Positions 7,141 through 33,278 are shown, counted from the first letter of the stretch. The stretch is DNA of 64,000 nucleotides from Promethearchaeota archaeon (GCA_048941015.1 JBHLNZ010000012.1:1-64000), one strand, 5' to 3'. The notes: generated by a model from the letters alone, not told the origin. A program made the numbers and translations.

Positions 7141-8055
7141 GTGTTTTATATTAAGTTAGAATATGAAAAAGAACAAAAAGTTGTTCATGTTGCAAACGTA
7201 AAATTAGGTGGTCAACCTGGTGAAAATCCACCTGTTATGATTGGGACTGTTTTTTATGCTAATCATGCAGCATTATTAGATGAGAAAACAGGAAAAATAG
7301 ACAAGAAACTTTTGGAACAAGAATTAAATGATTTCATAGAAGTTGTTGAAGATACAGGAATGCAAGGAATCATTGATATAGTAGGAGGGTATCCTGAGGC
7401 ATTATTAAAAGAATGTGAATATATCGCTCAGATTATAGATTATCCCTTTTTGGTTGATGGTTTAAATGATAATATAAGGATTCCAGCTATAGAGGGATTA
7501 AAAGAAATTGGTTTGTTAGAACGAGCAATATTAAATAGTATTGATGAAGCCACTTCTGATGATAATCTTAATAAGTTTAAGGAAATTGGTGTAAAAAATG
7601 CAGTTCTTTTAACTTTTGGCTCAAGATATATATTCCCTCATCAAAAATTAGAATTTCTTGAGAAAGAACTTATACCAAAAGCGAAAAAAGCTAATATAGA
7701 AAATTATATAATAGATACAGCTGTTTTAGATTTACCTTCTATTGGTATTAATGTTGAAACCGTTAGATTAATAAAAGAAAACTTAGGATTACCTGCAGGT
7801 TTTGCGCCAGCAAATGCAATATATGGATGGAATTTTATTAAAAAATATGGTGATATTGCTAGATGTGGAGCTATAGCTGCTCAGATGGCATATTGTATTA
7901 ATGCTGGAAGTGATTTTATATTATTTGGTCCTATAAAATTCGCAAAATGCGTAATTCCCGCAATTTCTTTAATCTCAGCAATAAATTCATACTACAGAAA
8001 ACGAATTTTAAGAAAAAAAATATCAGAGACAACTCCATTAAATAAGATTTTTTAA
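7141..8055 (+). CDS. mtrH: MtrH/MtgA-family pterin-binding methyltransferase
   Basis: N-terminal EQKV...GGQPGENPPVMIGTVFY, LNSI, DTAV, APANA, DFILFGPI; GTG start. Confidence 0.8.
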   Translation: MFYIKLEYEKEQKVVHVANVKLGGQPGENPPVMIGTVFYANHAALLDEKTGKIDKKLLEQELNDFIEVVEDTGMQGIIDIVGGYPEALLKECEYIAQIIDYPFLVDGLNDNIRIPAIEGLKEIGLLERAILNSIDEATSDDNLNKFKEIGVKNAVLLTFGSRYIFPHQKLEFLEKELIPKAKKANIENYIIDTAVLDLPSIGINVETVRLIKENLGLPAGFAPANAIYGWNFIKKYGDIARCGAIAAQMAYCINAGSDFILFGPIKFAKCVIPAISLISAINSYYRKRILRKKISETTPLNKIF

Positions 8056-9557
8056 GAAATGTATCTTAAAAGCAAATCTTGAGTAAGATTTAAAAAACCA
8101 GGGAGTTTTAAATTAACATTTTCTTTATTTTTCTCATTTTGCATTAAAAATAAAACAAACATCTCGAACTCAGCAACATTTATTCGTTTAAATAGAACAA
8201 CGGAATCGGAGACCTTGAATATCGCTTCATTTTGAGGAATTGACTTATATCTTGAAAATATTTTAAATAATATCGTAAATTGTGGCGCTGTAAGTTCAAA
8301 AACATTTAAAATTTCATTGGGATCAGGAAGTTTTGTTATTTCAATTGATTTAGGAGAAAAGTATTCAGCTAAGACTAACCCTTCATTACTTAATAATAGA
8401 GATAAGTAAATTTTTGTTTCTTTTGAAAAATTTCTAAGGTTATGTTTTATTAAGTCTCTATTAGGACTTAATTTTGAAATTCCCGCGCTAAAAGCACGTA
8501 AGATAGTGAATATATCGAAGATACTCGTTGCATATATCTCTTTTTTTGCTAGAGGGTCTTGATTCGTTAATAAATCCTTAATTAATTTAACATTAGCCTT
8601 AATTTCTGGTAAATTAGATATGTCTGGATCGTTTTTAGACAATATGTAAACGATAGGAGTATTTTGGTTAAAGTTCTTTAATACTTTTTTAATTTTATTA
8701 TGATATTCGATACTTTCTTCAAATCGTTTTGGATTTTTTATGTCAATAAAATAAAAAATTAAATCAGCTTCATAAAGATATATCTCAGCTTTATTGAGAT
8801 AACTTTCCCTGAATTTTAATTGGCCACCTAAATCCCAGAGGAAGATTGTTGCCCCTAATGCTTCAATTGAGCTAACTTTGGCTCCTAATGTTGGTTTTAA
8901 TCCAATTAATTTTGAGAATTTTCTGTCAACGGATAATAAAAATGAAGTTTTTCCTGAATCGTCTAATCCAGCAAAAATGATTTTCATTTTTCGATGAGTT
9001 GTAAATGGTGTTGAAGGATTCTTTTCAATATCAATCAATTCTTTTAAAAAATCTTCAAAATAAGGTTGTACTTCTGATTGTGGTTTAAATTCCTTTATTA
9101 AAATTGGATCTAATTTATTAAAGAATTCCAATATTAAGCCTTTTAATCTTTCCATATTGTTATATAAGAAACTTCTCTTATTTTCATCAATGAGAATTGA
9201 GAAAGCACTAGCTAGTGGTAAATCTTCTTCATCTTTTTTAATAAAATGAAAATAAGTTAAAGATGTCGAATTAAAATCAGGATAAGGGATAATGCCAAAA
9301 TATTGGAAATTTTCTACATCAACATTTTTTAATATAGATCCATCTCCAATTAGAAGACTTAGATTTTTTATTGAAATTTGAGTATAATCCCTTTGTGTTA
9401 ATTCAAGTATATCTGAAGTGTCATTTGTTCTGCTTTTATCATCTGATTCTAGCTTACTAACATATTCTGGAAAGCAGTAAATTGGTTGAGGTCCTAATTT
9501 ATCATAAGCACTGAAGACTAATCCATTTATTACTGAAGATTTAATTAATTCTTCCAT
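8052..9557 (-). CDS. Rag/Arf-like small GTPase with N-terminal longin/uDENN-like and C-terminal roadblock-like domains
   Basis: G1 GLDDSGKTS, G2 PTLG, G3 WDLGGQ, G4 SKND, G5 TSIFD; N-terminal VFSAYDKLGPQPIYCFP; paralog of 20215..21627. Confidence 0.85.
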   Translation of the reverse strand: MEELIKSSVINGLVFSAYDKLGPQPIYCFPEYVSKLESDDKSRTNDTSDILELTQRDYTQISIKNLSLLIGDGSILKNVDVENFQYFGIIPYPDFNSTSLTYFHFIKKDEEDLPLASAFSILIDENKRSFLYNNMERLKGLILEFFNKLDPILIKEFKPQSEVQPYFEDFLKELIDIEKNPSTPFTTHRKMKIIFAGLDDSGKTSFLLSVDRKFSKLIGLKPTLGAKVSSIEALGATIFLWDLGGQLKFRESYLNKAEIYLYEADLIFYFIDIKNPKRFEESIEYHNKIKKVLKNFNQNTPIVYILSKNDPDISNLPEIKANVKLIKDLLTNQDPLAKKEIYATSIFDIFTILRAFSAGISKLSPNRDLIKHNLRNFSKETKIYLSLLLSNEGLVLAEYFSPKSIEITKLPDPNEILNVFELTAPQFTILFKIFSRYKSIPQNEAIFKVSDSVVLFKRINVAEFEMFVLFLMQNEKNKENVNLKLPGFLNLTQDLLLRYIS

Positions 9558-9651
9558 TATCTAAAGCTATAAGAATTTAATTTTTTTTAACTTTAATGAT
9601 AATGCACTAGAGGAAAATTAATTATTAATAATTTTATTCTAGAAACATCAG

Positions 9652-10620
9652 ATGTTAGAAAAAATTGCAGATAGTATCAGAAATAATCATAATATTATTG
9701 AAAAGAAAGACATTGATCCTATAGTCCAATATATTGATAAAAACTCATTCAAATCTAATAAAATATTCTCCGACATTGGAGAAGATTCCGCATCAATAAA
9801 AAATAAAGAAAAATATATTTTGATAACAACTGACAGAATTAGGACAGACTTTATTGAAAACTTTCCTTATGGCGCAGGTTTTAGTTCAATACTAGTGGGA
9901 GTTGATGACATTTATTGCTGCGGGGGAACGCCTATTGCAGCAAGTATAATAATCTCATATAAAAATGAAATTACTGGATATAAAATAATTGATGGCATAT
10001 GTGAAGGATCTAAAAAATTTCAAATCCCTGTCATTCGAGGACATACAAACCCAAAAAGTAAGTGTTACGAATTAAGTTCTACAATAATAGGTGAAATAGA
10101 CAAAGAAAATTATATCTCAGCAAAAGGAGCTAAAGCCGGAGATGATATAATATTAGTAGTTGATTTTGAAGGTAAGGTAGGTAAAGCAAATAAATTATAT
10201 TGGGATACTGTAACATTTAAAGATTCTGAAGAGATTATAAGGAAACGTAAATCTATGAATATACTAGCAGAACAACATTCAATAAATGCATCGAAAGATA
10301 TTTCAAACGGAGGTATTTTTGGAACCATTTTACAACTCATAAGATTTTCTAAATTACAAATTAGTGCTGATATAAATATTAATAAAATAAAAATTCCACC
10401 AAAATTACTCGAAAATGGGTATGATTTAACTACTTATATTAAAATGTATCTAACAACTTCTTATATATTGACAGCACCACCAGAAAAATTTCAGCAAATA
10501 TCTGATATCTTTGAAAAATTTAGACTTAAAGCAGAAGTTATTGGAAAAATTATTAAGGAAGAGCCACAATTATTAAAAATAAATAATGGAAAAGATTCTC
10601 TAATTGTTATAAAACTTTAA
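9652..10620 (+). CDS. AIR synthase (PurM/ThiL) superfamily protein, methanogenesis-marker-2/sll0787-like
   Basis: GEDSA, DDIYCCGGTP, GHT, AKAGD, KDISNGG motifs. Confidence 0.75.
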   Translation: MLEKIADSIRNNHNIIEKKDIDPIVQYIDKNSFKSNKIFSDIGEDSASIKNKEKYILITTDRIRTDFIENFPYGAGFSSILVGVDDIYCCGGTPIAASIIISYKNEITGYKIIDGICEGSKKFQIPVIRGHTNPKSKCYELSSTIIGEIDKENYISAKGAKAGDDIILVVDFEGKVGKANKLYWDTVTFKDSEEIIRKRKSMNILAEQHSINASKDISNGGIFGTILQLIRFSKLQISADININKIKIPPKLLENGYDLTTYIKMYLTTSYILTAPPEKFQQISDIFEKFRLKAEVIGKIIKEEPQLLKINNGKDSLIVIKL

Positions 10621-10638
10621 AATAATTTTGATAATCTA

Positions 10639-11352: not shown

Positions 11353-11372
11353 AATTTTATATGTTTATATAA

Positions 11373-11882
11373 ATGAATTTTATCATTATTATGATAAAAT
11401 TAGAAGTAAAATTACCTGATAGACCAGGAAGCTTAATAGAACTTATTAGACCAATCTCTGAAAATGGAGGAAATATCTATGGAGTACTCCATTACCATGA
11501 TAAAAAAGTTAACGATTTAATTCCTGTAAGTATCACCTTTGAATTAAATCAAGAAATTTTTGAATTAGGTTTAGCAAATATCAAAAGGGAACTTAATGAA
11601 AAAAACATTCAAATTGAAAGCATCGATATAGATACTGAAAAGAGGAATCTTATCATCATTATAACTGGACATGTTTTTGATACTGATGTATTAGATACTA
11701 TTAAAAGATTAGCTGCTAAAAATATTATCGTATCAGAATTACATGCGAAATTTACAGAAATAAATAAGAGTAGTAATGTCAAATTAAAAATTGACTTTCC
11801 TGAATCTATTTCAAAAAATGATTTAATTACTGAACTAGAAAAGATTTGTGATGAAAAAGGATTATTCTTAATATCTTCTTGA
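11373..11882 (+). CDS. Double ACT-domain protein, putative allosteric regulator of homoserine dehydrogenase
   Basis: LPDRPGSL ACT motif, IIITGHVFDTD second ACT; directly upstream of hom. Confidence 0.8.
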   Translation: MNFIIIMIKLEVKLPDRPGSLIELIRPISENGGNIYGVLHYHDKKVNDLIPVSITFELNQEIFELGLANIKRELNEKNIQIESIDIDTEKRNLIIIITGHVFDTDVLDTIKRLAAKNIIVSELHAKFTEINKSSNVKLKIDFPESISKNDLITELEKICDEKGLFLISS

Positions 11883-12031
11883 TCGATTTAATTATTAAAG
11901 AAAATTGGATTCCTATCTTTTATTATAAATTTATTCAATCTTTTTAGGAAATATTGTAAATTCATAAAAAATATAAGTTTTCAATGAATATTTAATCCAA
12001 AATTTAACAATGTCATAATTACATAGATAAA

Positions 12032-13039
12032 ATGGAGACTAAAATATGTTTAATCGGTTATGGAAACGTTGGCAAAAGCTTTATCAAATTACTGTTAGAA
12101 AAGCAGCAATTTTTTAGAGAACAATTAAATTTAGGAATAAAAGTAATTGCAATATTCGAATATAATGGTGCTTTAATTAATGAGAGTGGCATAAATCTGA
12201 TTAAAATAATAGATAATACAAATAATTTTAGCGAATTATCTTATTGGAAGAAAAATCTTACATTTAAAGAAGTAATTCCAAATTTAGATGTTGATATTAT
12301 AGTTGAAACTACACCTACTAACTTAGAAATTGGAGAGCCAGGGCTCTCTCATATTATAGCCGCATTAAATTATAGGAAAGATGTTATTACGTCAAATAAA
12401 GGGCCTTTTTATTTAGCCTATAAAAAAATAATGAATTTAGCTCAAGAAAAAGGGTGTCATGTTGGATTTGAAGCAACAGTAGCAAGTTGTGTCCCAATTA
12501 TATCAATTAGTAAAAGTTTGATTGGAAATTATATCTCTAGTATTAAAGCTATTTTAAATGGTACCTCAAACTATATACTTAGTAGAATGACAGCAGAAGG
12601 TATTGATTTCTCATCTGCTTTGAAAGAGGCTCAGGAATTGGGATATGCGGAAGCAAAACCCAGTTTAGATATTGACGGATATGATGCCGCTGGAAAGCTA
12701 GTTATTTTAGCAAATCATTTATTAGGATGGTCTAAAAGTATTAAAGATGTAAAGATAAAAGGCATTTCTAAAATTACGCCTCATGCTATTGAATTAGCAA
12801 AGTCGGAAGGTCTAGTGATCAAACCACTTGCAGTGGCTGAAAATAATAGGTTAATAGTTGAACCACGTTTAATTGAAAAAGATTCTCCTCTAAATATCAA
12901 CGGTACCTTGAATGTAATTGAACTAAATACGGAATATGCAGGACCTATTATATTAACTGGGAGAGGAGCTGGAGGTCTCGAGGCAGCATCTGCTCTTATA
13001 AACGATCTTCTTAACATAATTAAGCTAAAATCTTCTTAA
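12032..13039 (+). CDS. hom: Homoserine dehydrogenase
   Basis: GYGNVG, VITSNKGP, FEATV, LNGTSNYIL, AQELGYAE, DIDGYDAAGK, GRGAGG. Confidence 0.95.
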   Translation: METKICLIGYGNVGKSFIKLLLEKQQFFREQLNLGIKVIAIFEYNGALINESGINLIKIIDNTNNFSELSYWKKNLTFKEVIPNLDVDIIVETTPTNLEIGEPGLSHIIAALNYRKDVITSNKGPFYLAYKKIMNLAQEKGCHVGFEATVASCVPIISISKSLIGNYISSIKAILNGTSNYILSRMTAEGIDFSSALKEAQELGYAEAKPSLDIDGYDAAGKLVILANHLLGWSKSIKDVKIKGISKITPHAIELAKSEGLVIKPLAVAENNRLIVEPRLIEKDSPLNINGTLNVIELNTEYAGPIILTGRGAGGLEAASALINDLLNIIKLKSS

Positions 13040-13137
13040 GAGTAAATTGGATTGAATTAATAATTGAGTTATAATTAAGAACTTCAAATATTATAGAATT
13101 AATGACTAAAATTAATTAAAAATATGGTGTAAATGAA

Positions 13138-13674
13138 ATGTATTTTAATTATAAAACTTCTTATAAAGCTACTATTTCAATTATAGGTGCTAGTGAAATT
13201 GATAAAAAAACAGAAATCTTAACAATGGAACTAGGTAGGTTATTAGCAAAAAATGGTTATGCTATAGCTTGTGGTGGATTAACAGGGGTAATGGAAGCCG
13301 TTTGTAAAGGTGTAAAAAAAGAAGGTGGATTAACGATTGGAATTATCCCTTTTAAAGAAAAAAATGCAGCAAATAGATATGTTGACATAGTAATTCCTGT
13401 TCCTTTTTCTCAAGCTAGAAATATTGTTGTAGTTTTAAGTGGAGATGCTTGTGTTGCTATTGCTGGAAAAGCAGGGACCTTGTCAGAAATATGTTTTGCT
13501 TGGATTTATGGAAAACCATTAATTGCATTATCTAGTGTTGAAGGATGGTCATCCAAATTAGCTAACCAAAGATTAGATGATCGAAGATCTGATATGATTT
13601 ATGGAGTAAATACTCCACAGATGGTGATTGAAAAATTAAATGAATTATTTAAAGGTATAGGTAAAGATGAGTAA
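13138..13674 (+). CDS. LOG-family (TIGR00725-like) nucleotide-binding protein
   Basis: CGGLTGVMEA, ARN, GKAGTLSE motifs. Confidence 0.85.
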   Translation: MYFNYKTSYKATISIIGASEIDKKTEILTMELGRLLAKNGYAIACGGLTGVMEAVCKGVKKEGGLTIGIIPFKEKNAANRYVDIVIPVPFSQARNIVVVLSGDACVAIAGKAGTLSEICFAWIYGKPLIALSSVEGWSSKLANQRLDDRRSDMIYGVNTPQMVIEKLNELFKGIGKDE

Positions 13675-15034
13675 TCAAAATATTCTATTCCATTCAACAA
13701 ACTATAATACTCCTGAAGTTAACCTTAAAACAGCTATTTTTAGAGGTCAAGCATTAGATTCAGGTTTATATATGTTAAATAAAATTCCAATCATAAAAAA
13801 AGAGATAATTTATTCCTTTAAGGATCTCCAGTTTAAAGATATTGCTTTAAATATATTAAAGCCTATTATTGATAAATCAATTCCTATAGATATTCTTAAA
13901 ATTATTATTAAAAAAGCTTTAAATTTTGACGTTCCAATAGAACGAATTAATAAAAACGATTCCCTATGTTATTTAGATGGAGGACCAACATGTAGTTTTA
14001 AAGATTTTGGAGCAAGAACATTAGCAAAAATTATGGAATATTTTCTTACGAAAGAAAAGAAAAAGATCATTATCCTTACTGCTACTTCAGGAGATACGGG
14101 TGGTGCAGTTGCTCAAGCATTTTATGAAATGAATAATATTAGCGTAGTGATCTTATATCCAAAAGATGAAGTTAGTGAATTACAAAGAAAGCAAATGACT
14201 ACTTTGGGAAAAAATATTATTGCTATTGGGATTAATGGAAAATTTGATGACTGCCAAAGAATGGTTAAACAAGCTTTTGCTGATACTGATCTAGATTATC
14301 TAAATTTAACTTCTGCAAATTCAATTAATTTTGGAAGGTTATTACCACAAGCTATTTATTATTTCTGGTGTTATTCCCGCATTATAGAAAATCAAAATGA
14401 ATCAATAATTTTTTCTGTTCCTTCAGGAAATTTCGGAAATTTAGTAGGAGGCTTAATGGCATTCAAAATGGGATTACCGGTAGTAAAATTTATAGCCGCT
14501 GTAAATGAAAATGATGAGTTCCCAAGATTTTTAGCTACAGGAAAATATGAGAAAGTAGAACCTTCACGAAATTGTATCTCAAATGCGATGAATGTTGGGC
14601 ATCCTTCGAATCTAGCAAGACTTTTCGATATATATAATGGTCATATTGATGAGAATGGAAATTTAATCAAAGAGCCTAATATCAAATTAATGAAACAAAC
14701 TATTATCTCTTATTCTATCAGTGAAGAATTAACCAAAAAAACTATTATTGAATTTTATAAAAATTATCAAAAAATTATTGAACCACATGGAGCTGTAGGA
14801 TGGGCTGCATTAAATCAATATCGAGTTCAGTTTCCAGAACAAAATGCTATTAAAGCAGTGTGTTTTGAAACTGCTAATCCCGCAAAATTTCCGAAAGAAA
14901 TAATTTCATTAATTAATGTTGTACCGAAAAAACCTAACTCATTAAAGTTAATTGAAAAGAGGAAGGAATATCCATATTCATCCGAAATTTCTAATTATCA
15001 AGACTTTAAGTACTTTTTACAAAAGAATTTTTAA
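13667..15034 (+). CDS. thrC: Threonine synthase
   Basis: GPTCSFKDFG (PLP Lys), ATSGDTG, FDDCQ, SANSINFGR, VPSGNFGN, HPSN; overlaps upstream gene by 8 nt. Confidence 0.95.
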   Translation: MSNQNILFHSTNYNTPEVNLKTAIFRGQALDSGLYMLNKIPIIKKEIIYSFKDLQFKDIALNILKPIIDKSIPIDILKIIIKKALNFDVPIERINKNDSLCYLDGGPTCSFKDFGARTLAKIMEYFLTKEKKKIIILTATSGDTGGAVAQAFYEMNNISVVILYPKDEVSELQRKQMTTLGKNIIAIGINGKFDDCQRMVKQAFADTDLDYLNLTSANSINFGRLLPQAIYYFWCYSRIIENQNESIIFSVPSGNFGNLVGGLMAFKMGLPVVKFIAAVNENDEFPRFLATGKYEKVEPSRNCISNAMNVGHPSNLARLFDIYNGHIDENGNLIKEPNIKLMKQTIISYSISEELTKKTIIEFYKNYQKIIEPHGAVGWAALNQYRVQFPEQNAIKAVCFETANPAKFPKEIISLINVVPKKPNSLKLIEKRKEYPYSSEISNYQDFKYFLQKNF

Positions 15035-15095
15035 AGAATACTATCATTTTTAAACTTACAAAAGAATATATTTGTTAATCATTTACATTATTACT

Positions 15096-15101
15096 AGGTG
15101 A
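15096..15101 (+). promoter_or_regulatory. Shine-Dalgarno-like site (AGGTGA) for TTG start of GTPase
   Basis: AGGTGA 7 nt upstream of TTG at 15109. Confidence 0.55.
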
Positions 15102-15108
15102 ATTTATT

Positions 15109-16080
15109 TTGGAAATTCAATTTTTATCTAAAGCTAAGGAAATAAAAGAGAAGAAAGAAATCGAGCCATCAAAAATCTTGTTCACGGGTCTTGACACAGC
15201 TGGTAAAACTACTATAATTTTAGCTTTACAAAGAGAATTCTCTAAAATTGCTTTATTAAAGCCAACTAGAGGGGCACAAAGAAGAATCTTTGAATTCTTA
15301 GGGAGGGAAATAGCAGAATGGGATCTTGGAGGGCAAATATCGTACCGTATTGCTTATTTGAAGAATCCAGGAAAATATTTTGACGGTACCGAAATCGCTA
15401 TATATGTAATTGATATTCAAAATAAAGCGAGAATTCCTGAAGCAATTAGTTATTTTAAAGATGTAATTATACAATTTAGGAAGCTAGAAATTGCCCCTCC
15501 AATATACGTATTTCTTCATAAATATGATCCTGCCCTTATTCGTAATGCTTTAAATGAGCTAAAAGCCCTTGAAATAGATATAAAAGAAAAATTAAAAAAT
15601 ACAGTTGATTATAAGAATATCTTTTTCTACACTACCTCTGTTTATGACCTAAATTCAATTATTAAAGCTATGTCTGAGATATTGCTCAATCTTTACCCTA
15701 AATCTGAATTAATTTCAAAAACTATCAACGAATTTGCCCAAAAGGTAGATTCAGAAGGAGTGGTATTGATTGATGATAATTCACTTATCATAGGATCCTA
15801 TTATAAAAATGAGGAATCTAAAAACCTCCTTTCGGCATCAACACCATATTTCTTGACTCTTAATGATAGTTTCCAATTTACACAAGTACTACCAGGCAGA
15901 CAGCAAGAAGAAAATAGAATGGTAGTCCAAAGATTTGGAAGAAATTTTATTTTTAAACAAATAAGTTTAAGACCGGGAAGTCCACCTTACTATATATTAA
16001 TGCTTAAGGAGGATCCAACGGTAAATCGAGAGGATTTTGATTCTTTTGCTAATTTATTGCAGGAGATATTATATAAATAA
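15109..16080 (+). CDS. Rag-like small GTPase with C-terminal roadblock-like domain
   Basis: G1 GLDTAGKTT, PTRG, WDLGGQ, Rag-type G4 HKYD, G5 TSVYD; C-terminal alpha/beta domain with VVLIDDNSLIIG. Confidence 0.85.
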   Translation: MEIQFLSKAKEIKEKKEIEPSKILFTGLDTAGKTTIILALQREFSKIALLKPTRGAQRRIFEFLGREIAEWDLGGQISYRIAYLKNPGKYFDGTEIAIYVIDIQNKARIPEAISYFKDVIIQFRKLEIAPPIYVFLHKYDPALIRNALNELKALEIDIKEKLKNTVDYKNIFFYTTSVYDLNSIIKAMSEILLNLYPKSELISKTINEFAQKVDSEGVVLIDDNSLIIGSYYKNEESKNLLSASTPYFLTLNDSFQFTQVLPGRQQEENRMVVQRFGRNFIFKQISLRPGSPPYYILMLKEDPTVNREDFDSFANLLQEILYK

Positions 16081-16236
16081 TCAAACTAATATTATTTCTA
16101 ATATAGAGAAGCCTTTCTATATTAATTTTTTAAAAAAAAGTAATTTTAATATCGATTTATATTATTTAATAAAAAATTACATTAATAAAATTAAATTTTT
16201 ATTATTATAACACACAAAGACAATTTTAATTTAATA

Positions 16237-17211
16237 ATGATAATATGTAGTAATTGCGGAGCAACAAATAACGAAGCAGAAACCCATATTTGTAGAAAAT
16301 GCGGTGCATTACTTCCAATATCAAGTAAACCTCCTCGAATCAGATTAACTACCCCAAAGAAATCCACTGGGAAATCTAAACCAAAAAAAGTTATTCTTCA
16401 AGAGGAAGAAACCATTTCAAATAAATTGAATTTACAAGAAATCCCTAAAGGAGTCATTCAAACGGATAATGAACTTAAATCTGAACCATTAAATGATGCT
16501 AATTTCAAACTAGATCAAAAAGATATAGATAATGAATATGACGAGTATAAAGAAGAAAAGGAGATTTTACAAGAAATTGCACCTAAACCATTTAGAGGAT
16601 CTATTATTTCTTCTAAATCGGTAAATCAATCATCAATAAAGCAATCGAAGAAAGCAGAATTAACAACAAAAGACAGTTCAGTTGAAATTTCGCTACTTAA
16701 ACAAAAACAGTTAGAAGAGGATATGTCAAAGGTCTTAAAATTTCTATCAAATAAAATAACCGTTAAAAAATTACCATCAGAAGAGAAAAAGGAAATCAAA
16801 AAAAAGACAGAGCCTACTATATCTCCTGCGAGTTTAAGTGAAATTCTAAAAGAACTCCTTAAACTTGACTTACATATTGAAGCATCAGCAATTATAAAAA
16901 ATGATGGTACAATTCTCGCATCAGCAATTTCTTCTCGTATTTCAGATTCTTTATTTGCAACAATCGGTCAGAACCTCTTAATGATTGGAAAAGATATAAT
17001 TGAAGGGTTAACTGCTGGTAAATTAATGAATATTTCAGTAAGAGGGACTAATGGTGTATTAGATTTAGCTCCCATTGATATAGAATCAACATTAGGAAAA
17101 GATATGCTTTTAATAATTCTATCTAATCCACGCGTTAAAAGTGGGATAATCAATTTTGCTGCAAATATTGTTAGAAAACAAGTTAAAGAATATTTAGGAA
17201 TTTCAAAATAA
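16237..17211 (+). CDS. Zinc ribbon + low-complexity linker + roadblock/LAMTOR2-like domain protein
   Basis: CSNC...CRKC at N-terminus, K/E/S-rich linker, C-terminal IEASAIIKNDGTILAS...ISVRGTNG roadblock pattern. Confidence 0.8.
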   Translation: MIICSNCGATNNEAETHICRKCGALLPISSKPPRIRLTTPKKSTGKSKPKKVILQEEETISNKLNLQEIPKGVIQTDNELKSEPLNDANFKLDQKDIDNEYDEYKEEKEILQEIAPKPFRGSIISSKSVNQSSIKQSKKAELTTKDSSVEISLLKQKQLEEDMSKVLKFLSNKITVKKLPSEEKKEIKKKTEPTISPASLSEILKELLKLDLHIEASAIIKNDGTILASAISSRISDSLFATIGQNLLMIGKDIIEGLTAGKLMNISVRGTNGVLDLAPIDIESTLGKDMLLIILSNPRVKSGIINFAANIVRKQVKEYLGISK

Positions 17212-17216
17212 ATTAA

Positions 17217-18017
17217 CTATAATAACTTCTTTTGGATTACTATTTTATTTATTTCAAGTATGTTGAAATAAGGCAAATTTGTTTTTAATTCCTGTAGAAA
17301 TGAATTAAAATAATAAATTCCAACTAGAGGGATACTATTTTCACTTATACGTATTGAATTATCTTCCAAAGTCACCATTATAGGTATTAATTTGAAAGGC
17401 AATTTATGCCTTATAGAATTATAATTCCCTAAAAGTTCCCTAATTAGACAGGAAAAGATATAAATGTTCTTTTGTAATGCTAAGGCTCGCTGCAATTGCA
17501 AATATGCTGCTCTATTGATTGCACTATAAGAATCTTTACGCTTCCATTGTTTTGCATCTATAATCAGTAGATGGGAATCAAGTATACCAATAACATCAAT
17601 TTCATATCTTTTTTGTAGTGTTTTTAGTTTAAAATCAGTTTTATCGGTAAATCTAAAATTATTAATTGCTTTATAACCATTCATTATTAAAATCTGCTTA
17701 ATAAGAACTTCAAATCCATTAAAATCTAATAAATTTGAGAGTTTTTGAATATCTAAATCAAGAAATTTGAAAGATTCTATTATAAATAAGATCTTATCAA
17801 CTACAATGTAATTGATATAATTGCCTTTTCTAATAGTTATTGATTCAAACTGATCTAAAAAATCTTTTAATTCATGCTTATTAATTTGCTTTATAGAAGT
17901 GATTTCAGGGATCTCAAGCCAAATTTCAGTTAATTTTTCATCTTTTTGAGTTAGAACAGTATAAATTTCAGAAAAAAATTGATTTAAGAATGAAGATGAA
18001 AATATTTTTATCATCAA
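17217..18017 (-). CDS. PD-(D/E)xK nuclease-fold protein (Mrr/NERD-like)
   Basis: FEVLI...YEIDVIG...LIIDAKQW catalytic pattern. Confidence 0.7.
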   Translation of the reverse strand: MMIKIFSSSFLNQFFSEIYTVLTQKDEKLTEIWLEIPEITSIKQINKHELKDFLDQFESITIRKGNYINYIVVDKILFIIESFKFLDLDIQKLSNLLDFNGFEVLIKQILIMNGYKAINNFRFTDKTDFKLKTLQKRYEIDVIGILDSHLLIIDAKQWKRKDSYSAINRAAYLQLQRALALQKNIYIFSCLIRELLGNYNSIRHKLPFKLIPIMVTLEDNSIRISENSIPLVGIYYFNSFLQELKTNLPYFNILEINKIVIQKKLL

Positions 18018-20214: not shown

Positions 20215-21627
20215 ATGGCTGAACAAAAAATAGGTATATTAAAATCTCTAGTCTTTAGTTTGTTTGATGAAGATGGTCCTACCCCAAAAATATATTGGCC
20301 AGATGATATGGATGAATCTGCTCGTTTATTAATAGCTATGAAAACGATTAGCCTTTTAATGGGGGATGCTATATATCAAAATGGGAAAAAAAATGAAGGA
20401 ATTAATTATTTTGGAATACTTCCCTTTCCCGACTTAAAATTAAATGGATTAACCTACTTCTTTTTGATATCAGACTCAAAAGCGCGTGGCCATGCGAAAG
20501 CTGCGACGATAACTGCTTTGATTGATGAAGATAAAAAGCTCTTTTTTTATGAAAATATGAAATATTTACGAGTAATCATAGACAGAGCAGCTTCAAAAGT
20601 ACAAGAAGCAGAAAACTTTAAAGATTATGAAATGATTATGGACGATTTAAGAGAAGAACTTTTCGATTTCACAAAAGATATCAAAGATCCATTTTCTATC
20701 AAACATCAGTTAAAAATATTATTCGTTGGTTTAGATCAAGCGGGAAAGACAAGCTTTTTGCATGGCGTAAAGAAAAAATATTCTGAAATAATAAAAACGT
20801 TACCAACTCGAGGGATTGCACGAACAGAAGAGAAATTATTTGAAGAACAAAATTCTCAGATCTCAATTTGGGATTTAGGAGGCCAAAAGCAATATCGAGA
20901 TAGATTTCTTGAACAGAGTAAGGTTTATCTTTACAATGTGGATTTATTATTCTTTTTTATAGATATTCAAGATTCAGAAAGAATAAAAGATGCATTGGAA
21001 TTATTTAATAAAATTTTAAACTCATTAAAAGAAATGGATGAGTTTCCTCCGATAGTATTATGTTTAAATAAATACGATCCTGATTTGAAGGATTCAAAAA
21101 TAGTCAATAAAAGTCTTAAATATGCTAAAAAAGAAATTGAAAAGAATGATGAAGGGTTTTTTATTAAAATCTTCCAAACTTCTGTTTTTGACCATTGGTC
21201 CTTGATTTCAGCCTATTCATATGGTCTTTCGGAATTAAGTCCTAATCGAGAACTTTTTGAAAATCAATTAAAACTTTTTGCTGAAGCTACAAACTCAGAT
21301 GCTATGCTTTTACTTAACGAAAATGGAATAATATTATCAAATTTTTCTACTTCGGAAATATCAGGCAAAATGTTTGAAATCTCAGCTCCTCATTTTCAAA
21401 CTTTGTATAAAACTTTTAAGGAGTTCAAGTTATTACAAAAAGATTTTATAGTTTCTTCAGGAATTAGTGATGAGTCAAAAAAAATAATTTTCAAGAAGAT
21501 TAGTGTTGATAAATACAATCTTTATTTACTTCTTTTTGTTGAAAAATTCTTAGGAATAGAACAAATTGAGAAATATATACCTAAATTTATCAAAAATCTT
21601 AAAGAATTAATCCAGACTTATATTTAA
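20215..21627 (+). CDS. Rag/Arf-like small GTPase with N-terminal longin/uDENN-like and C-terminal roadblock-like domains
   Basis: G1 GLDQAGKTS, PTRG, WDLGGQ, NKYD, TSVFDHWSLISAYS; N-terminal LVFSLFDEDGPTPKIYWP; paralog of 8052..9557. Confidence 0.85.
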   Translation: MAEQKIGILKSLVFSLFDEDGPTPKIYWPDDMDESARLLIAMKTISLLMGDAIYQNGKKNEGINYFGILPFPDLKLNGLTYFFLISDSKARGHAKAATITALIDEDKKLFFYENMKYLRVIIDRAASKVQEAENFKDYEMIMDDLREELFDFTKDIKDPFSIKHQLKILFVGLDQAGKTSFLHGVKKKYSEIIKTLPTRGIARTEEKLFEEQNSQISIWDLGGQKQYRDRFLEQSKVYLYNVDLLFFFIDIQDSERIKDALELFNKILNSLKEMDEFPPIVLCLNKYDPDLKDSKIVNKSLKYAKKEIEKNDEGFFIKIFQTSVFDHWSLISAYSYGLSELSPNRELFENQLKLFAEATNSDAMLLLNENGIILSNFSTSEISGKMFEISAPHFQTLYKTFKEFKLLQKDFIVSSGISDESKKIIFKKISVDKYNLYLLLFVEKFLGIEQIEKYIPKFIKNLKELIQTYI

Positions 21628-23054: not shown

Positions 23055-23696
23055 TTGATATATAGGATTTATTTAATTGATGGGGATAACGGTATTTCCA
23101 TCTTAGAATCAACATTTAAAGATTTTAAAAAAGATAAGATTTCTGATGATTTAATACCAGGGTTTTTCCAAGAAATAAATAGGATAATCGATAATATCCA
23201 AGAAATGATGGCTAAAGGTGAAAAAGGGACTGAAATGGTTCGTTTGTTAGAATCAGAAAAATCTACGATCGTTATTTTTTATCATCCTTTATCACGAATC
23301 TTATTTTGTTCAATTTCAGATGCGGATGATAATACAGATAAACTTATCGAAGTGATAAAAAAAATAGCAATAAGATTTTGGAAAAAGCATCAATCAGATA
23401 TAAAATTATTCAGAACTACTACTGAAAAAAGTAGGTTCCAAACAATAATTGCTGATATTGAAAATCTTACTAATGGTGGTAAAATAGCTGAGATTTTTCC
23501 GAAAATATTATTAATAAAAAATGTTTTAGAGAAAATTTTATCAATGGGAATGATTTCTAAGTTTGAATTTGAAGTTGCTCAAAAATGTACAGGAGAAAAT
23601 TCTCCGTTAATGATTTCTAGGTTTTTTAATAAAACATTAACTGAAATCAATGAAGTCTTAAAAAAATTAGAACAACTGGATATTATTCGAATATAA
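23055..23696 (+). CDS. Longin-like domain protein with probable C-terminal winged helix
   Basis: IYLIDGDNGISI...LIPGFFQEI longin-like pattern; C-terminal EINEVLKKLEQLDII; TTG start. Confidence 0.6.
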   Translation: MIYRIYLIDGDNGISILESTFKDFKKDKISDDLIPGFFQEINRIIDNIQEMMAKGEKGTEMVRLLESEKSTIVIFYHPLSRILFCSISDADDNTDKLIEVIKKIAIRFWKKHQSDIKLFRTTTEKSRFQTIIADIENLTNGGKIAEIFPKILLIKNVLEKILSMGMISKFEFEVAQKCTGENSPLMISRFFNKTLTEINEVLKKLEQLDIIRI

Positions 23697-24433: not shown

Positions 24434-24535
24434 TTCATTTTGTTTTATAAAAATAAAAATTTTAATTTTATAATTTTATTAAAAGAGTAAGTCTTATACT
24501 TTTTTTGAAAGAATTTTTCAGATACCGGTGTTTAT

Positions 24536-25033: not shown

Positions 25034-25056
25034 CAAGAATGTTATAAATAGTAATA

Positions 25057-25872: not shown

Positions 25873-25921
25873 AAAAATAAAAGTTCTCTAAATTAATAGA
25901 TAAAATAATAATCTTTAAAGG

Positions 25922-27508: not shown

Positions 27509-27522
27509 ATTGCCGTAAGGAG

Positions 27523-28128: not shown

Positions 28129-28166
28129 TTGATATTAAAAAAAAAAGATAGAATAAAAATAAAAAT

Positions 28167-31100
28167 TTATTTTTTGGCAGAAATTATTAACTTCCTTTCA
28201 ATTAAATTTTCTAAAGCATCAATAACTTTGTCTTTATTTTGCTCATGGATAGCCTCTAAGAGATAATCTAAATAAAACGAATTTTTTGTTTTAACCATTG
28301 AATAAATCACATTTAAGACTCTTGTTTCCATTGATGTCAATTCCATTTCTTTTCTCATTTGGGCTATATACTCAGGAGAATTTAATTCAAAAGGTTCTTT
28401 ATAGAAAAGCTCTATGTAATTCTCAAGTATGGGGGGAATTAAAGTCTCAAACATATCTAAAGACCCATCCCAATTCTCGATTTGTCTGGATAATTGTAAA
28501 GTTAATCCCATTGAAAAGTTAGCGATTATTTCCTTTAATCTATCTGATGCCTTTTCTTTTAATACAAGTACTATTCGAATGTCTCCTTGATCACAAATTA
28601 AACAATCAAAATACTTGAAGTCTAATTCTAAAATTTTTTCAACTACTGTAATTTCATCAGAATCTTCGGTTATTTGACCTTTCCCTGCAATTTCTTCACC
28701 TATCGTAGTAATTGCTTGAATAAATCCTGAAAAGAGTTCTTTCTTTTGTTTTTCTAATATTGAATAACTTTTTGAGTATAAAGGAATTCCACTTAGTTTA
28801 TGAATTACGACGATAGCCTGTATATTCTTAAGATCCTTAAATCTTTGCGTTCTTGATAACAGTTTTGCTTCTTTTTTCTTTCTCCTCGGAATTATTACAT
28901 AGGATCTTATACTTAAACTCCCTAAAACACTTATTAATATTGCGAGTCCTATTAAAACGATCCATAGTATAAAATTTGGTAATTGTTTTGCTGAAATAAC
29001 TGCAATAAAAGAAGTTTGTTTCGCTTTATACAAAACATTGTCGGACGAAATAATCAACGAGACTTTATAGCTACCTTGGACATTATCGGGTATATAAAGA
29101 TCAACTTCATAAATTCCATTACCAAGATATTCAAAATTACCTAGTCCAAATTTCCATGAATAACTTATAGTAGCGTTTTCAATAATATTAGCAGAAACTG
29201 ATTCCGTTAAATTAATTCGAATAGTCAAAATATCTCCAGAATAACTTTCTATTGTATCTTGAAAATCAATTGTCAAGGCATTCATATCAATTTGATTTAC
29301 CAATATCAGAAAATGAAAAGTTGATGATGTGTAATTTGGATGATTAAACTGCACATATACAATGTTAACACCTAAATCAAAATAAGATGGGTCGCAAAAG
29401 ATAGATGTGTTATACCAAAAGTTAGCGTTTTCGTTGAAATCTTGACTATGACTTCCTATTACGAAAGTAGCACTTCCACCCTCAAGAAAGATTTTTTCAG
29501 AATTAGCTAAAGCTTTTAAGGAAAGGGAAAACTCGTCATAATAAGTTACTTGAGTTAAATTATTTGGTAAGATTTGGTTTGAGTTAACATATAAAGACAA
29601 ATTTACAGTTTCAGCGACAATAAAGAATTGGAACGAAAAATACGCTTCAGTATAATTTTCTTGCTTGAATCTAATAGACATAGTATTGATACCTAAATCA
29701 AAATAAGCTCCATCTATTACAATCGAAGTCGTAAACCAAGAAGGATTTGAAATTTCTTCATAAAGATTAAAAGTAAAGTATTCACCTATTAATGTTATAT
29801 TTCCTCCCGAAAGATAGATTCCTTCTCCCATTGCATATGCTTGAGCTGCAATAGTTATATTTTCCTTAAACATAACTTCAATTAATGCATTTTCTAGGAT
29901 TGGGGCACTATTAATTGAAGCGTTTACTTGTACTGATTGTTCCTTTACCAACAATTGAAATGAAAAGTAAGTTGTAGTATAGTTCTGCTTTTCGAACTTA
30001 ATTGAAACAGTATTAACGCCTGAACTAAAGTTTGAGGAACTTAGAATAAATGATAAATTGTACCAATTATCTCCATATTCGATGAAATTATTTAAATAAT
30101 TTTCACTAATCCAATAAATATCAGCATTATCAATAAAATCCAACTCCATATCTCCATATGCTTTCACAGAAATAGTTAAATTTTGTTTAAACATGACTTC
30201 TTTTAATTGGTTTTCCGAGATCTGTTCGGAATTTAAATACACTGAAAGATTTACTGGTTGCTCATATACTAACAATTGAAAGTAAAATGACTCAGTTTGA
30301 TATTTTTCCATTTCAAAACGCAGCGTTACTAAATTCAAACTTGGTGAATATATTGATGGATTTATTTCAATTGATGCATTATACCAATAATCGGCATATT
30401 CATTTAAAGTTTGTTGATAAGAATTGCTTATCCATGTAAAATTTCCCCCTGTTAAAAAATTATTATCGATTATTGCTCTTGATTTAACTGATACATTAAG
30501 CTTCTCCATATATGTAACTTCAACAATCGAGTTTTGAGTAATTTCTACATTATCAATATAAGTTGATATAATAACACTCTGCTCTATAATCTCAAATTGA
30601 TAAATGTGTGTTTGCGGTTCGAATGCTGGAGCACTAAAATTGAAATCGAGCTGAAATATACCTAACTCATTAATGAAAGAAGTGTTAAATTCAATATCGT
30701 AATATCCCCCTAAAGAATTTGTAATATGATATAGATCAGGATTTGTAATATTAACTGCTATATTTGCTCCATCGATTCCTTCTCCATCAAATAGAGAGTA
30801 GTATCTAAATTTTATTGTACTATTTGCGTGTAATTCTATGTCATAATCGGATTGGATTCGTTGTAAACTAGTTTCCTCTCCTATATTAATTTTAAGCGTT
30901 AAATTGTAATCTAAAAATCCAACCTTACTAGATTCAATTAAAATCTCATAAAATCCATTTGATCCTAAGTCTGAAGTATCTAAGATTGCCTCGTATATTC
31001 CTAAAGCGGCTTCTTCAAATAATAGGGTTCCAGAAGTCCAATTATAGGAGATTATTGCGTTTGAAATAGAATTATTATTCTCAGAGTCTATTAATTTGAT

Positions 31101-33278
31101 TCGTACTGGAATAATGTCTCCAACGAATGCATCAGCGATTAAGTCGAAAATTGCATCGTTAGGTTTAAGAAGTGAAAATGAACTTTCATGTACAACGAGA
31201 AAGCTTGAGTTCAAACCGCCTAAAGAGGTACCATTAGACCAGAATAGTGTATAATCGTATTGACCACCAGTTGTATTCAACGCATCGAAATATAACTCAG
31301 AAAAAAACACCGTTCCATTTAATAAGGGCGCTTTTTCTTCAGTAAACCACATTAATCCATCAGGATCATATACAGTAAAATTCACGGATGTGGAATCAAG
31401 ATTAGCAGGTATCTCATTGCTATAATTAACTTGAGTTTTGATTACGGTTGATTCTCCTGTATTAAATGTTGTACCGGTCCATACTCCTTGCTTTAATAAT
31501 TTTGTGTTTTCTAAATTCAAATAGTTTGGAGAGGTTGCTATGAAACTCCACCATCCTGGATATAATGCATAAGTACTATTAATTTTCAAGAAATCATCTC
31601 CATAATTGCCTCCTTCAAATTCAACATCAAATAAAGTGGGGTCTAATACAGATTTAAAATCCCAATTAATTGGCTTTTCAATAATGACATTAAAATCACT
31701 ATACTGAGAAGGCATATATAGATTGTGGAAAAATTCCCAAATAATAGTACCATTCTTAAGAATATTATAACGTAAACCCTGCTCATTTTGTTGATTAATC
31801 ATTGTTTTAGCATTGTGATATCCTACTAATGTTGTATTTAAATCTAAGGTGAGAGAGGGGGATATTGTTGATAGATTTAAAATTATAGGATTGCTTTCCC
31901 ATAAACTGTTCAAACTTATGTGAGATTCCCCCCATAAATTTCCTTCAATTGGATTTTCTGAATTAATTTTTAACATAATATCGCTTTGACTTGAATTTGC
32001 TATTGAGTTCAGAACTAAGGATACATTATCAAACCATATAAAATTTAGTAATCCATCGGGAGAATTAGTATAAGTCCAACCGATATCAATCTTAAATCCT
32101 ATTGAGATGTTAAAAGTTTGGTATTGTACGTCTGAATCAAAAATATCAGAAGTATTGTCCCATAAATCCATGGTTATTTTTCCTGATTTATGCCAACTCC
32201 TTTTTCCTTGATCATATATTTCTCCCATTCCTTTCGAATATATTTTTTGATTATTTATAGCAACATATATATAATTATCATTAGTCTCTAATCCAAATTC
32301 ACAATAATAATCAAAGCTAACATAAGCTTCTGTTATTGCTTTTCTTGGAACCGTGAAGTTTTGATATATTTCTGAAAAGGCATTATCTTCATATGAAAAT
32401 TCGTTGTAATCAATATAGTCTGCATAAGTAGCTACATAAGCAGCTGTTGTATTCTCAATCTCTCCAATACCATAATAATTTTTACCTGTAGTCCCTATTT
32501 GGTCATAATTAAATCCCCAGTTAGAATTAATTTCTAAATTAGAAGACTCATTAATAAATTCATAATAATCAATATAATAACCATAATACTGAATTATATT
32601 ATCTGATTCATAGTCAAATTTAATCCAGTTTCCTGGAATCCATGGAGTATAAACATCATAGCCACTACTATCATTAACATAATATACTTCATTAAGAGCA
32701 TCATATACATACATATAGTCGTAATCTGGTTCAAATGAAAAATTGACAAAATGAGCTCTCATATATAAAGCGCTTGGTTCATTTATGTAATCTTCAGGAC
32801 TAGATGGATTAGGGTTATTATTTTGTGAATAATTATGAGGTGTCTCCAAAGGAATAGGTAGATATTTCCTAAAAATATTCGGTAATTGAAATCCTGAATT
32901 ATTGACCCAATTTCGGGTATCTTTTATATTTGAGATAGAGGAATTAATCATCGATACTTTCCAATCATGAACATCATCGAGATAATATGTTAAGTTTACT
33001 TGATCCTGATTAGTGACTTCAATATCATCACTTAGTTTATGCAAATTTCCGTAATCAGTAATATTCAATGAATCTTCAAGTCCTTCAAATAAAGGTGAAT
33101 CGCTATCAGAGATTTTAAGATTTCTAAGTTCACTGTATTTATTTTGTTGCTTATATAGATTTAAAGAATTATTAAAAATGCTAGTGCTTAATAAGATACC
33201 TATTAAAATGGTAGAAAAAATCGTTAGTCTAATTAGTATTTTACTTTTTAAAATTTTCTTCTGTAAAAAAATAACCAT
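28167..33278 (-). CDS. Large cell-surface receptor-like protein: CUB-like and Ig-like repeats, TM helix, cytoplasmic longin-like + winged-helix tail
   Basis: N-terminal signal/TM; HFVNFSFEPDYDY...YESDNIIQYYGY CUB-like; ~105-aa beta repeats; TM followed by RRKKK; tail IQAIVVIHKLSGIPLYSK...LFSGFIQAI. Confidence 0.8.
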   Translation of the reverse strand: MVIFLQKKILKSKILIRLTIFSTILIGILLSTSIFNNSLNLYKQQNKYSELRNLKISDSDSPLFEGLEDSLNITDYGNLHKLSDDIEVTNQDQVNLTYYLDDVHDWKVSMINSSISNIKDTRNWVNNSGFQLPNIFRKYLPIPLETPHNYSQNNNPNPSSPEDYINEPSALYMRAHFVNFSFEPDYDYMYVYDALNEVYYVNDSSGYDVYTPWIPGNWIKFDYESDNIIQYYGYYIDYYEFINESSNLEINSNWGFNYDQIGTTGKNYYGIGEIENTTAAYVATYADYIDYNEFSYEDNAFSEIYQNFTVPRKAITEAYVSFDYYCEFGLETNDNYIYVAINNQKIYSKGMGEIYDQGKRSWHKSGKITMDLWDNTSDIFDSDVQYQTFNISIGFKIDIGWTYTNSPDGLLNFIWFDNVSLVLNSIANSSQSDIMLKINSENPIEGNLWGESHISLNSLWESNPIILNLSTISPSLTLDLNTTLVGYHNAKTMINQQNEQGLRYNILKNGTIIWEFFHNLYMPSQYSDFNVIIEKPINWDFKSVLDPTLFDVEFEGGNYGDDFLKINSTYALYPGWWSFIATSPNYLNLENTKLLKQGVWTGTTFNTGESTVIKTQVNYSNEIPANLDSTSVNFTVYDPDGLMWFTEEKAPLLNGTVFFSELYFDALNTTGGQYDYTLFWSNGTSLGGLNSSFLVVHESSFSLLKPNDAIFDLIADAFVGDIIPVRIKLIDSENNNSISNAIISYNWTSGTLLFEEAALGIYEAILDTSDLGSNGFYEILIESSKVGFLDYNLTLKINIGEETSLQRIQSDYDIELHANSTIKFRYYSLFDGEGIDGANIAVNITNPDLYHITNSLGGYYDIEFNTSFINELGIFQLDFNFSAPAFEPQTHIYQFEIIEQSVIISTYIDNVEITQNSIVEVTYMEKLNVSVKSRAIIDNNFLTGGNFTWISNSYQQTLNEYADYWYNASIEINPSIYSPSLNLVTLRFEMEKYQTESFYFQLLVYEQPVNLSVYLNSEQISENQLKEVMFKQNLTISVKAYGDMELDFIDNADIYWISENYLNNFIEYGDNWYNLSFILSSSNFSSGVNTVSIKFEKQNYTTTYFSFQLLVKEQSVQVNASINSAPILENALIEVMFKENITIAAQAYAMGEGIYLSGGNITLIGEYFTFNLYEEISNPSWFTTSIVIDGAYFDLGINTMSIRFKQENYTEAYFSFQFFIVAETVNLSLYVNSNQILPNNLTQVTYYDEFSLSLKALANSEKIFLEGGSATFVIGSHSQDFNENANFWYNTSIFCDPSYFDLGVNIVYVQFNHPNYTSSTFHFLILVNQIDMNALTIDFQDTIESYSGDILTIRINLTESVSANIIENATISYSWKFGLGNFEYLGNGIYEVDLYIPDNVQGSYKVSLIISSDNVLYKAKQTSFIAVISAKQLPNFILWIVLIGLAILISVLGSLSIRSYVIIPRRKKKEAKLLSRTQRFKDLKNIQAIVVIHKLSGIPLYSKSYSILEKQKKELFSGFIQAITTIGEEIAGKGQITEDSDEITVVEKILELDFKYFDCLICDQGDIRIVLVLKEKASDRLKEIIANFSMGLTLQLSRQIENWDGSLDMFETLIPPILENYIELFYKEPFELNSPEYIAQMRKEMELTSMETRVLNVIYSMVKTKNSFYLDYLLEAIHEQNKDKVIDALENLIERKLIISAKK
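29300..30600 (-). repeat. About four tandem ~105-aa Ig-like repeats within the surface protein (approximate bounds)
   Basis: Recurring FQxxxxEQxVxxxxxxN...EVxxxxxxxxSxKA...WYNxS...GxNxxxxxFxxxNY; repeat is visible at protein level only. Confidence 0.7.

Follow-up and report, generated by a model that had tools for sequence, protein, structure and literature searches.

The stretch of DNA considered here, called the window, spans the initial 64 kb of contig C1 in a Promethearchaeota archaeon assembly (GCA_048941015.1, JBHLNZ010000012.1:1-64000; 3.59 Mb in 144 contigs, ~28% G+C). Between positions 6041 and 28128 it carries a block of genes in which three GTPases of the Rag/Gtr1 type are found together with roadblock and longin proteins. 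A preliminary description of this DNA had suggested that six proteins may be interacting parts of one circuit leading from the cell surface to the GTPases. They are labelled here A (8052-9557, minus strand), B (15109-16080), C (16237-17211), D (20215-21627), E (23055-23696) and G (28167-33278, minus strand), and open reading frames (ORFs) are present at all six coordinates. The features of the block and of its right flank are the following:

6041..7123, plus strand: multi-pass membrane protein of 360 aa, recognised by its hydrophobic segments; conserved left edge of the block, adjoining A
8052..9557, minus strand: A, predicted longin (GP motif, no Arg) - Rag/Gtr1-like GTPase - roadblock fusion of 501 aa; Gtr1_RagA 70.1 bits
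9652..10620, plus strand: AIR-synthase-related (PurM-like) protein; Pfam AIRS and AIRS_C; divergent from A
13138..13674, plus strand: SLOG cluster-4 (LOG-like) protein; Pfam LDcluster4 1.2e-40; between the AIRS-like gene and B
15109..16080, plus strand: B, Rag/Gtr1-like GTPase with a predicted C-terminal roadblock, 323 aa; Gtr1_RagA 89.8 bits
16237..17211, plus strand: C, Zn ribbon - K/E/S-rich linker - roadblock/LC7 protein of 324 aa; starts 156 nt downstream of B
17217..18017, minus strand: hyp266, conserved 266-aa protein with family unassigned and no Pfam match; between C and D
18207-20012: NrdD-like gene with an ATP cone; between hyp266 and D
20215..21627, plus strand: D, predicted longin (GP and conserved Arg, A90-R91-G92) - Rag/Gtr1-like GTPase - roadblock fusion of 470 aa; Gtr1_RagA 87.7 bits
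21644..22918, minus strand: transglutaminase-like membrane protein; Pfam Transglut_core 1.3e-21; convergent with D, divergent from E
23055..23696, plus strand: E, soluble protein of 213 aa with a longin (2-122) and a winged helix (155-207); AlphaFold2 and Foldseek
28167..33278, minus strand: G, single-pass surface protein of 1703 aa with an E-like tail (1464-1703); transmembrane segments and hhalign

The Gtr1_RagA scores of A, B and D lie far over the Pfam cut-off of 22 bits, and the Arf model also matches, at lower scores. Their nucleotide-binding motifs are intact, comprising a GLDxxGKT P-loop, a DLGGQ stretch (DxxGQ) and the sequences SKND, HKYD and NKYD of the (N/S/H)KxD type. A and D, which share 32% identity over their full length, are each other's closest paralogs in the genome apart from a further D-like gene, D', on contig C33; B belongs to a different subfamily, and its 34% identity to D covers the G domain and reaches into the beginning of the C-terminal domain. 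For D, an AlphaFold2 model based on 23 orthologs and paralogs (predicted local distance difference test score, pLDDT, 72.9) places a longin topology (strands and helices in the order bb-a-bbb-aa) at residues 9-154 and the GTPase, whose switch region is poorly predicted, at 165-340; residues 345-469 show a roadblock topology (a-bb-a-bbb-a). Foldseek ranks 8yl2 first for this model (1.5e-20), followed by RagA/RagC, Gtr1/Gtr2 and 'LokiRagM', with alignments of ~305-319 columns for 8yl2, RagA/RagC and Gtr1, while a Lokiarchaeal longin domain (8yqg_B; 3.1e-8, TMt 0.72) and MglB (5.9e-7) appear in lower rows. The PDB title of 8yl2 describes a homo tetrameric RagA-like small GTPase from Asgard Lokiarchaeota (LokiRagO), and residues 8-320 of B match chain 8yl2_A with an E-value of 7.2e-93 (phmmer), which makes B a close relative of LokiRagO. 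The roadblock following the G domain is supported in D by the model and Foldseek, in B by the full-length 8yl2_A match, and in A by homology to D only. Judged from their sequences, A, B and D are Rag/Gtr1-type GTPases with a predicted C-terminal roadblock domain. Six genomes of the same genus (L059, L060, L061, L063, L064 and L068) hold an extra D-like GTPase gene of ~349 aa downstream of an Ogg gene, which has no counterpart in the window.

The longins fused to A and D carry a motif that has been linked to GTPase-activating protein (GAP) function. Passages of a 2025 paper in Traffic (PMC12290439) single out a GP motif immediately ahead of strand 2 as a specific mark of the GAP longins FLCN, NPRL2, SMCR8 and C9orf72, where it neighbours the Arg finger, report the motif in some Asgard longins, and ask which GTPases these longins serve. 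The G21-P22 pair is invariant in 21 of 21 A and D sequences, and strand 2 of the D model begins at residue 21, that is, with the GP at its start. The b4-b5 loop of D contains an ARG stretch (A90-R91-G92) that is present in 13 of 13 D orthologs; among the matches listed (512 were found), GP and ARG occur together in 119 of 120 D-family relatives. A-type sequences lack an Arg in this loop (0/8), though their GP is invariant. By motif, the predicted D longin carries the GP and Arg typical of folliculin/SMCR8/NPRL2-type GAP longins, and its ARG stretch presumably resembles the 'DS.ARG' stretch around Arg164 of FLCN. Other results caution against a direct equation with folliculin. The Pfam Folliculin model scores 20.4 bits (E-value 5e-4) on the N-terminal domain of D, under its cut-off of 23.3 bits, and gives no match on A; PDB searches with the N-terminal domain of D (phmmer) and with profile A4 did not reach folliculin either, the best row being 8yqg_A, a 'Longin domain', at an E-value of 0.036. 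The Arg of D may be the equivalent of the FLCN/SMCR8/NPRL2 Arg finger, for which it is a candidate by motif.

The remaining soluble proteins of the block are a roadblock protein and a longin. In C, a Zn ribbon recognised by Pfam matches at the N-terminus is joined through a linker of ~170 residues to a C-terminal region whose 125-residue profile matches Roadblock/LC7 chains of the PDB (7f8m_A 1.3e-6, 7yh1_D 2.2e-5, 9jue_D 5.8e-3). The 'Cake' designed proteins that topped the same list were discarded as repeat artefacts, with 0 matched stretches. C also matches the genome's own Robl proteins (phmmer); the Pfam Robl_LC7 model itself stays under its 23-bit cut-off, with 16.8 bits (E-value 0.0058) for C and 20.8 bits for two orthologs. 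For E, an AlphaFold2 model with a pLDDT of 85.7 was obtained, the N-terminal domain of which is grouped with longins by both Foldseek and VIA-align, and a longin fold without the roadblock-type N-terminal helix is found both in E and in the tail of G. No Pfam family is matched by E, and all 120 homologs among the matches listed, from 430 in total, are unnamed or annotated as 'hypothetical'. Across 1.84 billion proteins, the E family has only 67 representatives, mostly of ~200-245 aa or shorter fragments, and the protein atlas returned unnamed clusters only for E, with weak leads to TrmB and HTH_47. The Pfam cut-off of Clat_adaptor_s is exceeded by two distant family members, and the clathrin-adaptor small chain is itself a longin; a search of PDB sequences with the E profile gave only weak VAMP7-longin rows (E-values 0.6-1.1). 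In one relative (G033), E lies within a 540-aa ORF, in a GC-richer genome with long overlapping ORFs on both strands. The transglutaminase-like protein encoded between D and E has transmembrane segments at both ends (4-34 and 378-415), with the domain outside, and its GDC, GHAW and CDP stretches, picked out by eye, are taken by us to hold the Cys, His and Asp of the catalytic triad of the family.

G is the largest of the six proteins. It has transmembrane helices at residues ~12-36 and 1431-1463, followed by a cytoplasmic tail of 240 residues. The relation of this tail to E is visible only by profile comparison: hhalign aligns the two families over 130 columns with a probability of 94.2% and an E-value of 1.2e-7, whereas direct BLASTP of the G tail against E gives nothing significant (E-value 0.36). 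The tail also contains a DnaD_N-type winged helix (E-value 0.0012). Tails of the G type are present on at least eight other membrane proteins of the genome. Two soluble proteins of ~460 aa (L074 and L075; G000 C50:81336-82754 and C58:117521-118894) contain a tail-type longin as well, flanked by a Cys-rich N-terminus and a helical C-terminal part. Pfam, models and profiles together bear out the domain calls of the preliminary description for all six proteins: longin-GTPase-roadblock fusions for A and D, a GTPase for B, a Zn-ribbon-roadblock protein for C, a longin with a winged helix-turn-helix for E and a longin-like tail for G.

How far these genes travel together was examined by comparing loci from relatives' genomes, in which ORF starts are first-start calls, with the window's 25 proteins. 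Of the genomes sampled, orthologs of E were found in 110 of 126 from the same family, 7 of 13 from a second family, 3 of 3 from a third and, weakly, 2 of 2 from a fourth; 6 genomes belonging to three further families yielded none. Within the genus, all 12 loci keep the full order, which runs membrane protein, MtrH, A, AIRS-like, SLOG, B, C, hyp266, NrdD-like, D, transglutaminase-like and E, and continues with L13e/HhH, hyp165, methyltransferase, hyp528, CxxCxxCC and G; the B-to-E order is counted in 11 of 12, a contig end cutting B off in the single exception. Among 11 loci from nine other genera of the family, the series B, C, hyp266, (NrdD-like), D, (transglutaminase-like), E and the downstream genes recur in 10, and the eleventh is a 4.5-kb contig with D and E only. 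D and E stay close throughout most of this sample: the two genes are neighbours, either adjacent or with only the transglutaminase-like gene between them, in 12/12 same-genus loci, 11/11 loci of other genera and 4 of the 5 second-family loci long enough to tell, a count that leaves aside a 4.3-kb contig of the second family with E alone (G141).

The order also extends into the second family. In the complete genome G038 and in G036, the genes for A, AIRS-like, SLOG, B, hyp266, D, transglutaminase-like and E lie in order, with different flanks and different interleaved metabolic genes; in G030, the genes for B, C and D follow one another directly on one strand, separated by 120 and 54 nt. Smaller units show the same persistence. 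The pair formed by A (minus) and the AIRS-like gene (plus) is retained across the family and in G038, G036 and G032, the order AIRS-SLOG-...-B is retained in both families, and a homolog of the membrane protein at the left edge, for which no Pfam family is matched, adjoins A in the same-genus genomes and in G038, G036 and G032, all three from the second family. Likewise, hyp266 occupies the same position in every same-family locus reaching there and in G038, G036, G040 and G032, and wherever a same-family locus extends far enough, C adjoins B, as it does in G030. The transglutaminase-like gene adjoins D and/or E in three families, and the constant surface neighbour of D and E is this protein, not G. 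G is in place in 11 of 12 same-genus loci, the twelfth contig stopping short; among the other genera of the family just 2 of 8 loci have it there, and no second-family locus does. The length of G varies within the genus from 1177 to 1837 aa. G is a variable insertion and an accessory neighbour rather than a fixed part of the block.

Several observations speak against a block held together as a strict unit. C is absent beside B in G038, G036 and G032. In the third family, E keeps only its divergent transglutaminase-like neighbour, and a JAB-domain protein or a phosphorylase stands in the place of D. The complete genome G032 (genus g2) has the block split into two parts 80 kb apart, one reading hyp266-D-x-transglutaminase-like-methyltransferase-CxxCxxCC and the other membrane protein-A-AIRS-SLOG-...-B, and E was not found in 3 of 3 g2 genomes (87-93% complete), though A and D are present; a 206-aa ORF between D and the transglutaminase-like gene of G032 was rejected as a candidate E (hhalign probability 0.3%). 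The block is not one operon, since its genes lie on both strands and unrelated genes are interleaved (homoserine dehydrogenase, threonine synthase, NrdD-like, methyltransferase). Background synteny is not negligible either. When genes within 16 kb were scored for a homolog near the ortholog of the anchor, with two random anchors elsewhere in the genome as the control, 12 of 27 neighbours around E were retained in G038, against 3 of 19 and 7 of 23 at the random anchors, and the corresponding figures for G030 were 11/27 against 5/19 and 8/23; the excess is real but modest, and comes from two controls only. Finally, contig C33 (L080, 1-11640) cannot be counted as a second instance. It carries hyp266, an NrdD fragment, D' and E' (57% identical to E and truncated where the contig stops); two large paralogous membrane proteins lie in between. 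D' is 68% identical to D, which is the level of orthologs in the genus's other species, the local order is the same, and the bin has an estimated contamination of 5.1%. The D'-E' pair was rejected as a paralogous pair and as independent support, as divergence and order point elsewhere, and C33 is probably a co-binned relative or a segmental duplication.

Within the genome itself, the GTPase genes of the block are not randomly spread. Of the 14 strong Gtr1_RagA matches of the 3.59-Mb genome, three fall within 12.3 kb (P 0.0086 under random placement); when all 35 small-GTPase matches are counted instead, P is 0.14. A wider set of 66 toolkit genes, made up of GTPase, roadblock and E-like or tail-like genes, places six in 19.8 kb where 0.46 would be expected per 25.2 kb, with a P of 0.001 that is biased towards significance because the longin-like part of the set was defined with the window's own proteins. 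No other part of the genome has such genes packed so densely as the block (P ~0.001-0.009). A second, looser cluster, at ~16.9-74.6 kb of contig C122, holds four membrane proteins with E-like tails and four small-GTPase genes in 57 kb. The earlier expectation of a gene density above the genome background is in agreement with both tests (P 0.0086 for the three Rag-like genes, P 0.001 for the six toolkit genes of the biased set). As to linkage, conservation holds for A, B, C, D and E, across the sampled genera of the family and part of the second family, and fails for G; the block is retained in relatives, as had been anticipated, without the strong selective synteny that would set it clearly apart from its surroundings (12/27 versus 3/19 and 7/23 in G038).

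The reading that we favour, with a probability of about 0.55, is that the interval 6041-28128 represents a conserved neighbourhood in which Asgard RagGtr-type GTPase genes lie with candidates for their regulators, arranged in two modules that are often, not always, side by side. The first module would comprise A, the AIR-synthase-like protein, the SLOG protein, B and, in most genomes, C; the second would comprise hyp266, D, the transglutaminase-like membrane protein and, in most genomes, E. The roadblock domains would mediate oligomerisation of the GTPases, as they do in Rag/Gtr dimers and in LokiRagO. The GP and Arg of the D longin could constitute a built-in GAP element, and this longin may pair with the Arg-less longin of A. 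The presence of a longin fused to a Rag-type GTPase suggests the Rag type as the client of Asgard GP-motif longins. C might act as an MglB/LAMTOR-like roadblock partner of B, and E as a longin adaptor or output protein tied to D and to the transglutaminase-like surface protein.

The strongest competing explanation is that only inherited gene order is being observed: an unscrambled stretch of chromosome, with an old local duplication at the origin of A and D, whose proteins take part in separate processes. We give it an appreciable but clearly smaller chance. It accounts for the fact that unrelated genes in the block (methyltransferase, CxxCxxCC, L13e/HhH, AIRS-like, SLOG) are equally conserved, for the 16-35% of neighbours that random anchors keep in the second family, and for the relation between A and D as closest paralogs (bar D'), and it fits G032, in which the modules are split and E is dispensable. 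On the other hand, retention around E exceeds both controls in both genomes, the genes intervening between B, C and D have gone in G030 and left the three directly consecutive on one strand, and nowhere else in the genome are such genes as dense. In addition, the trio of GTPases is not a simple tandem array, given that the subfamily of B differs from that of A and D.

A more ambitious version of the favoured reading would regard A and D as self-contained Rag switches with their own folliculin/SMCR8-type GAP longin, pairing with each other in the manner of SMCR8-C9orf72 or FLCN-FNIP and dimerising via their roadblocks, and wired to C, E and the surface transglutaminase-like enzyme rather than to a lysosome. 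We consider it unlikely as a whole.

Still less probable is the proposal that E works as a transcription factor independently of the GTPases, with a longin-type sensor and a TrmB/HTH_24-type winged helix regulating the divergent transglutaminase-like gene. The divergent pair formed by this gene and E, with a shared intergenic region of 136 nt, is the most widely kept arrangement (three families), and the winged helix of the E family gives weak matches to TrmB in 8 of 19 members and to HTH_24 in 7 of 19, in line with the atlas leads. All these winged-helix matches are, however, under the Pfam cut-offs, and E is still kept where the transglutaminase-like gene is absent between D and E, namely in 5 of 11 loci of other genera and in G013. 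Furthermore, DNA binding by E fits poorly with the finding that the same longin and winged-helix module forms the cytoplasmic tail of membrane-anchored proteins.

The original proposal of a single circuit of six proteins, in which G would be the receptor, its tail would dock the Rag-like GTPases, and the roadblock and longin proteins would scaffold and regulate them, draws on the homology between the G tail and the E longin, the winged-helix-like end of the tail, the position of G 6.5 kb from D and its constancy within the genus, but is very improbable. G is scarce at this place outside the genus and its length is unstable. Of the 9 tail-bearing membrane proteins of the genome, 2 have a small-GTPase gene within 10 kb, about what random placement would give (null mean 1.36, P 0.40). 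In G032, moreover, the A/B part is parted from the D part, and E was not found in that genus.

The component families are already in print, namely Asgard RagGtr longin/roadblock fusions, roadblock proteins, and NPRL2-like and other longins. Parts of Tran et al. 2024 (PMC10933270) list the longin-GTPase-roadblock build for the cultured Lokiarchaeon MK-D1 and remark that genome layout rarely shows which regulator serves which GTPase, and sections of a preprint by Liu et al. 2020 (10.1101/2020.10.19.343400) note Rag-family GTPase-longin fusions and describe Asgard 'NPRL2-like' families. A and D have the same build as the MK-D1 fusions, and B aligns along its full length with 8yl2_A. Compared with the Asgard RagGtr proteins LokiRagO (8yl2) and LokiRagM (8zla/9m28), known here from PDB titles, the window differs in that its three GTPases sit with roadblock and longin genes in a conserved neighbourhood. 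The literature searched yielded no paper on LokiRagO or LokiRagM, and no description of this neighbourhood, of the GP/Arg reading of the D-family longin or of the transglutaminase-like protein as a constant surface neighbour.

Likenesses to better-known systems are partial. The presence of an Arg-bearing longin (D) along with an Arg-less one (A) recalls the pairing of subunits in FLCN-FNIP, which acts on RagC/D, NPRL2-NPRL3 of GATOR1, which acts on RagA/B, and SMCR8-C9orf72, which acts on Arf, and the client would likewise be a Rag-like GTPase. Unlike in the FLCN, NPRL2 and SMCR8 GAP complexes, longin and GTPase are parts of one polypeptide in A and D, and neither a DENN nor an NPRL C-terminal module is present. 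Roadblock dimers are a docking platform for Rag GTPases, and the position of the roadblock gene C directly after the GTPase gene B is reminiscent of mglB beside mglA. C departs from MglB and from the Ragulator (LAMTOR) proteins by its Zn ribbon and long linker; B has a roadblock of its own, and the adjacency is lost in G038, G036 and G032. NPRL2 and NPRL3 combine a longin with a C-terminal winged-helix-type domain, as E does, but Pfam NPR2/NPR3 do not match E or its 19 aligned relatives, and HTH_NPRL3 is matched only by three distant proteins with multiple winged helices that resemble the winged helix of E alone. The Streptomyces conservon CvnA-D consists of a sensor kinase-like protein, a roadblock protein, a DUF742 protein and a small GTPase, and shares with the block a set of roadblock, winged-helix and small-GTPase genes. 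Two distant relatives of E give weak DUF742 matches (E-values 7.7e-4 and 2.6e-4), under the cut-off. The block differs from the conservon in having no kinase-like sensor gene (by Pfam) and in that its GTPases are of the Rag type.

Other features of the window deserve mention in their own right. The stretch D...IDAKQW in hyp266 (17217-18017) resembles, as judged by eye, the motif of PD-(D/E)xK nucleases. At the position of the NrdD-like gene, several related genomes retain no more than a 141-171 aa fragment. Amino-acid genes (an ACT-domain protein, homoserine dehydrogenase and threonine synthase) are interleaved with the Rag-like GTPase genes at 11373-15034. The threonine synthase gene immediately precedes B in the window and in many of the family's loci, a position of interest in that eukaryotic Rags report amino-acid supply, and one that may be due to chance. 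Farther downstream, a hydantoinase A/B and acetone-carboxylase-gamma operon (38893-43782) lies in the only stretch of raised G+C in the window (0.35 versus ~0.28); of the same-genus genomes examined, a single one has it too.

Small GTPases, like longin and roadblock proteins, run to dozens in Asgard genomes, and from these the block shortlists matched candidates that recur across two families. The candidate pairs are B with C, D with E and the transglutaminase-like protein, and A with D. The negative results matter as well: G does not behave as a fixed partner, and the picture of one circuit is not carried by the comparative data. The A/D fusions make the question of which GTPases are the clients of GP-motif longins testable with few recombinant proteins and point mutants. 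If A and D were indeed switches equipped with their own GAP longin, the fusion would serve as a 'Rosetta stone', and the pairing of Rag GTPases with longin GAPs would be older than eukaryotes.

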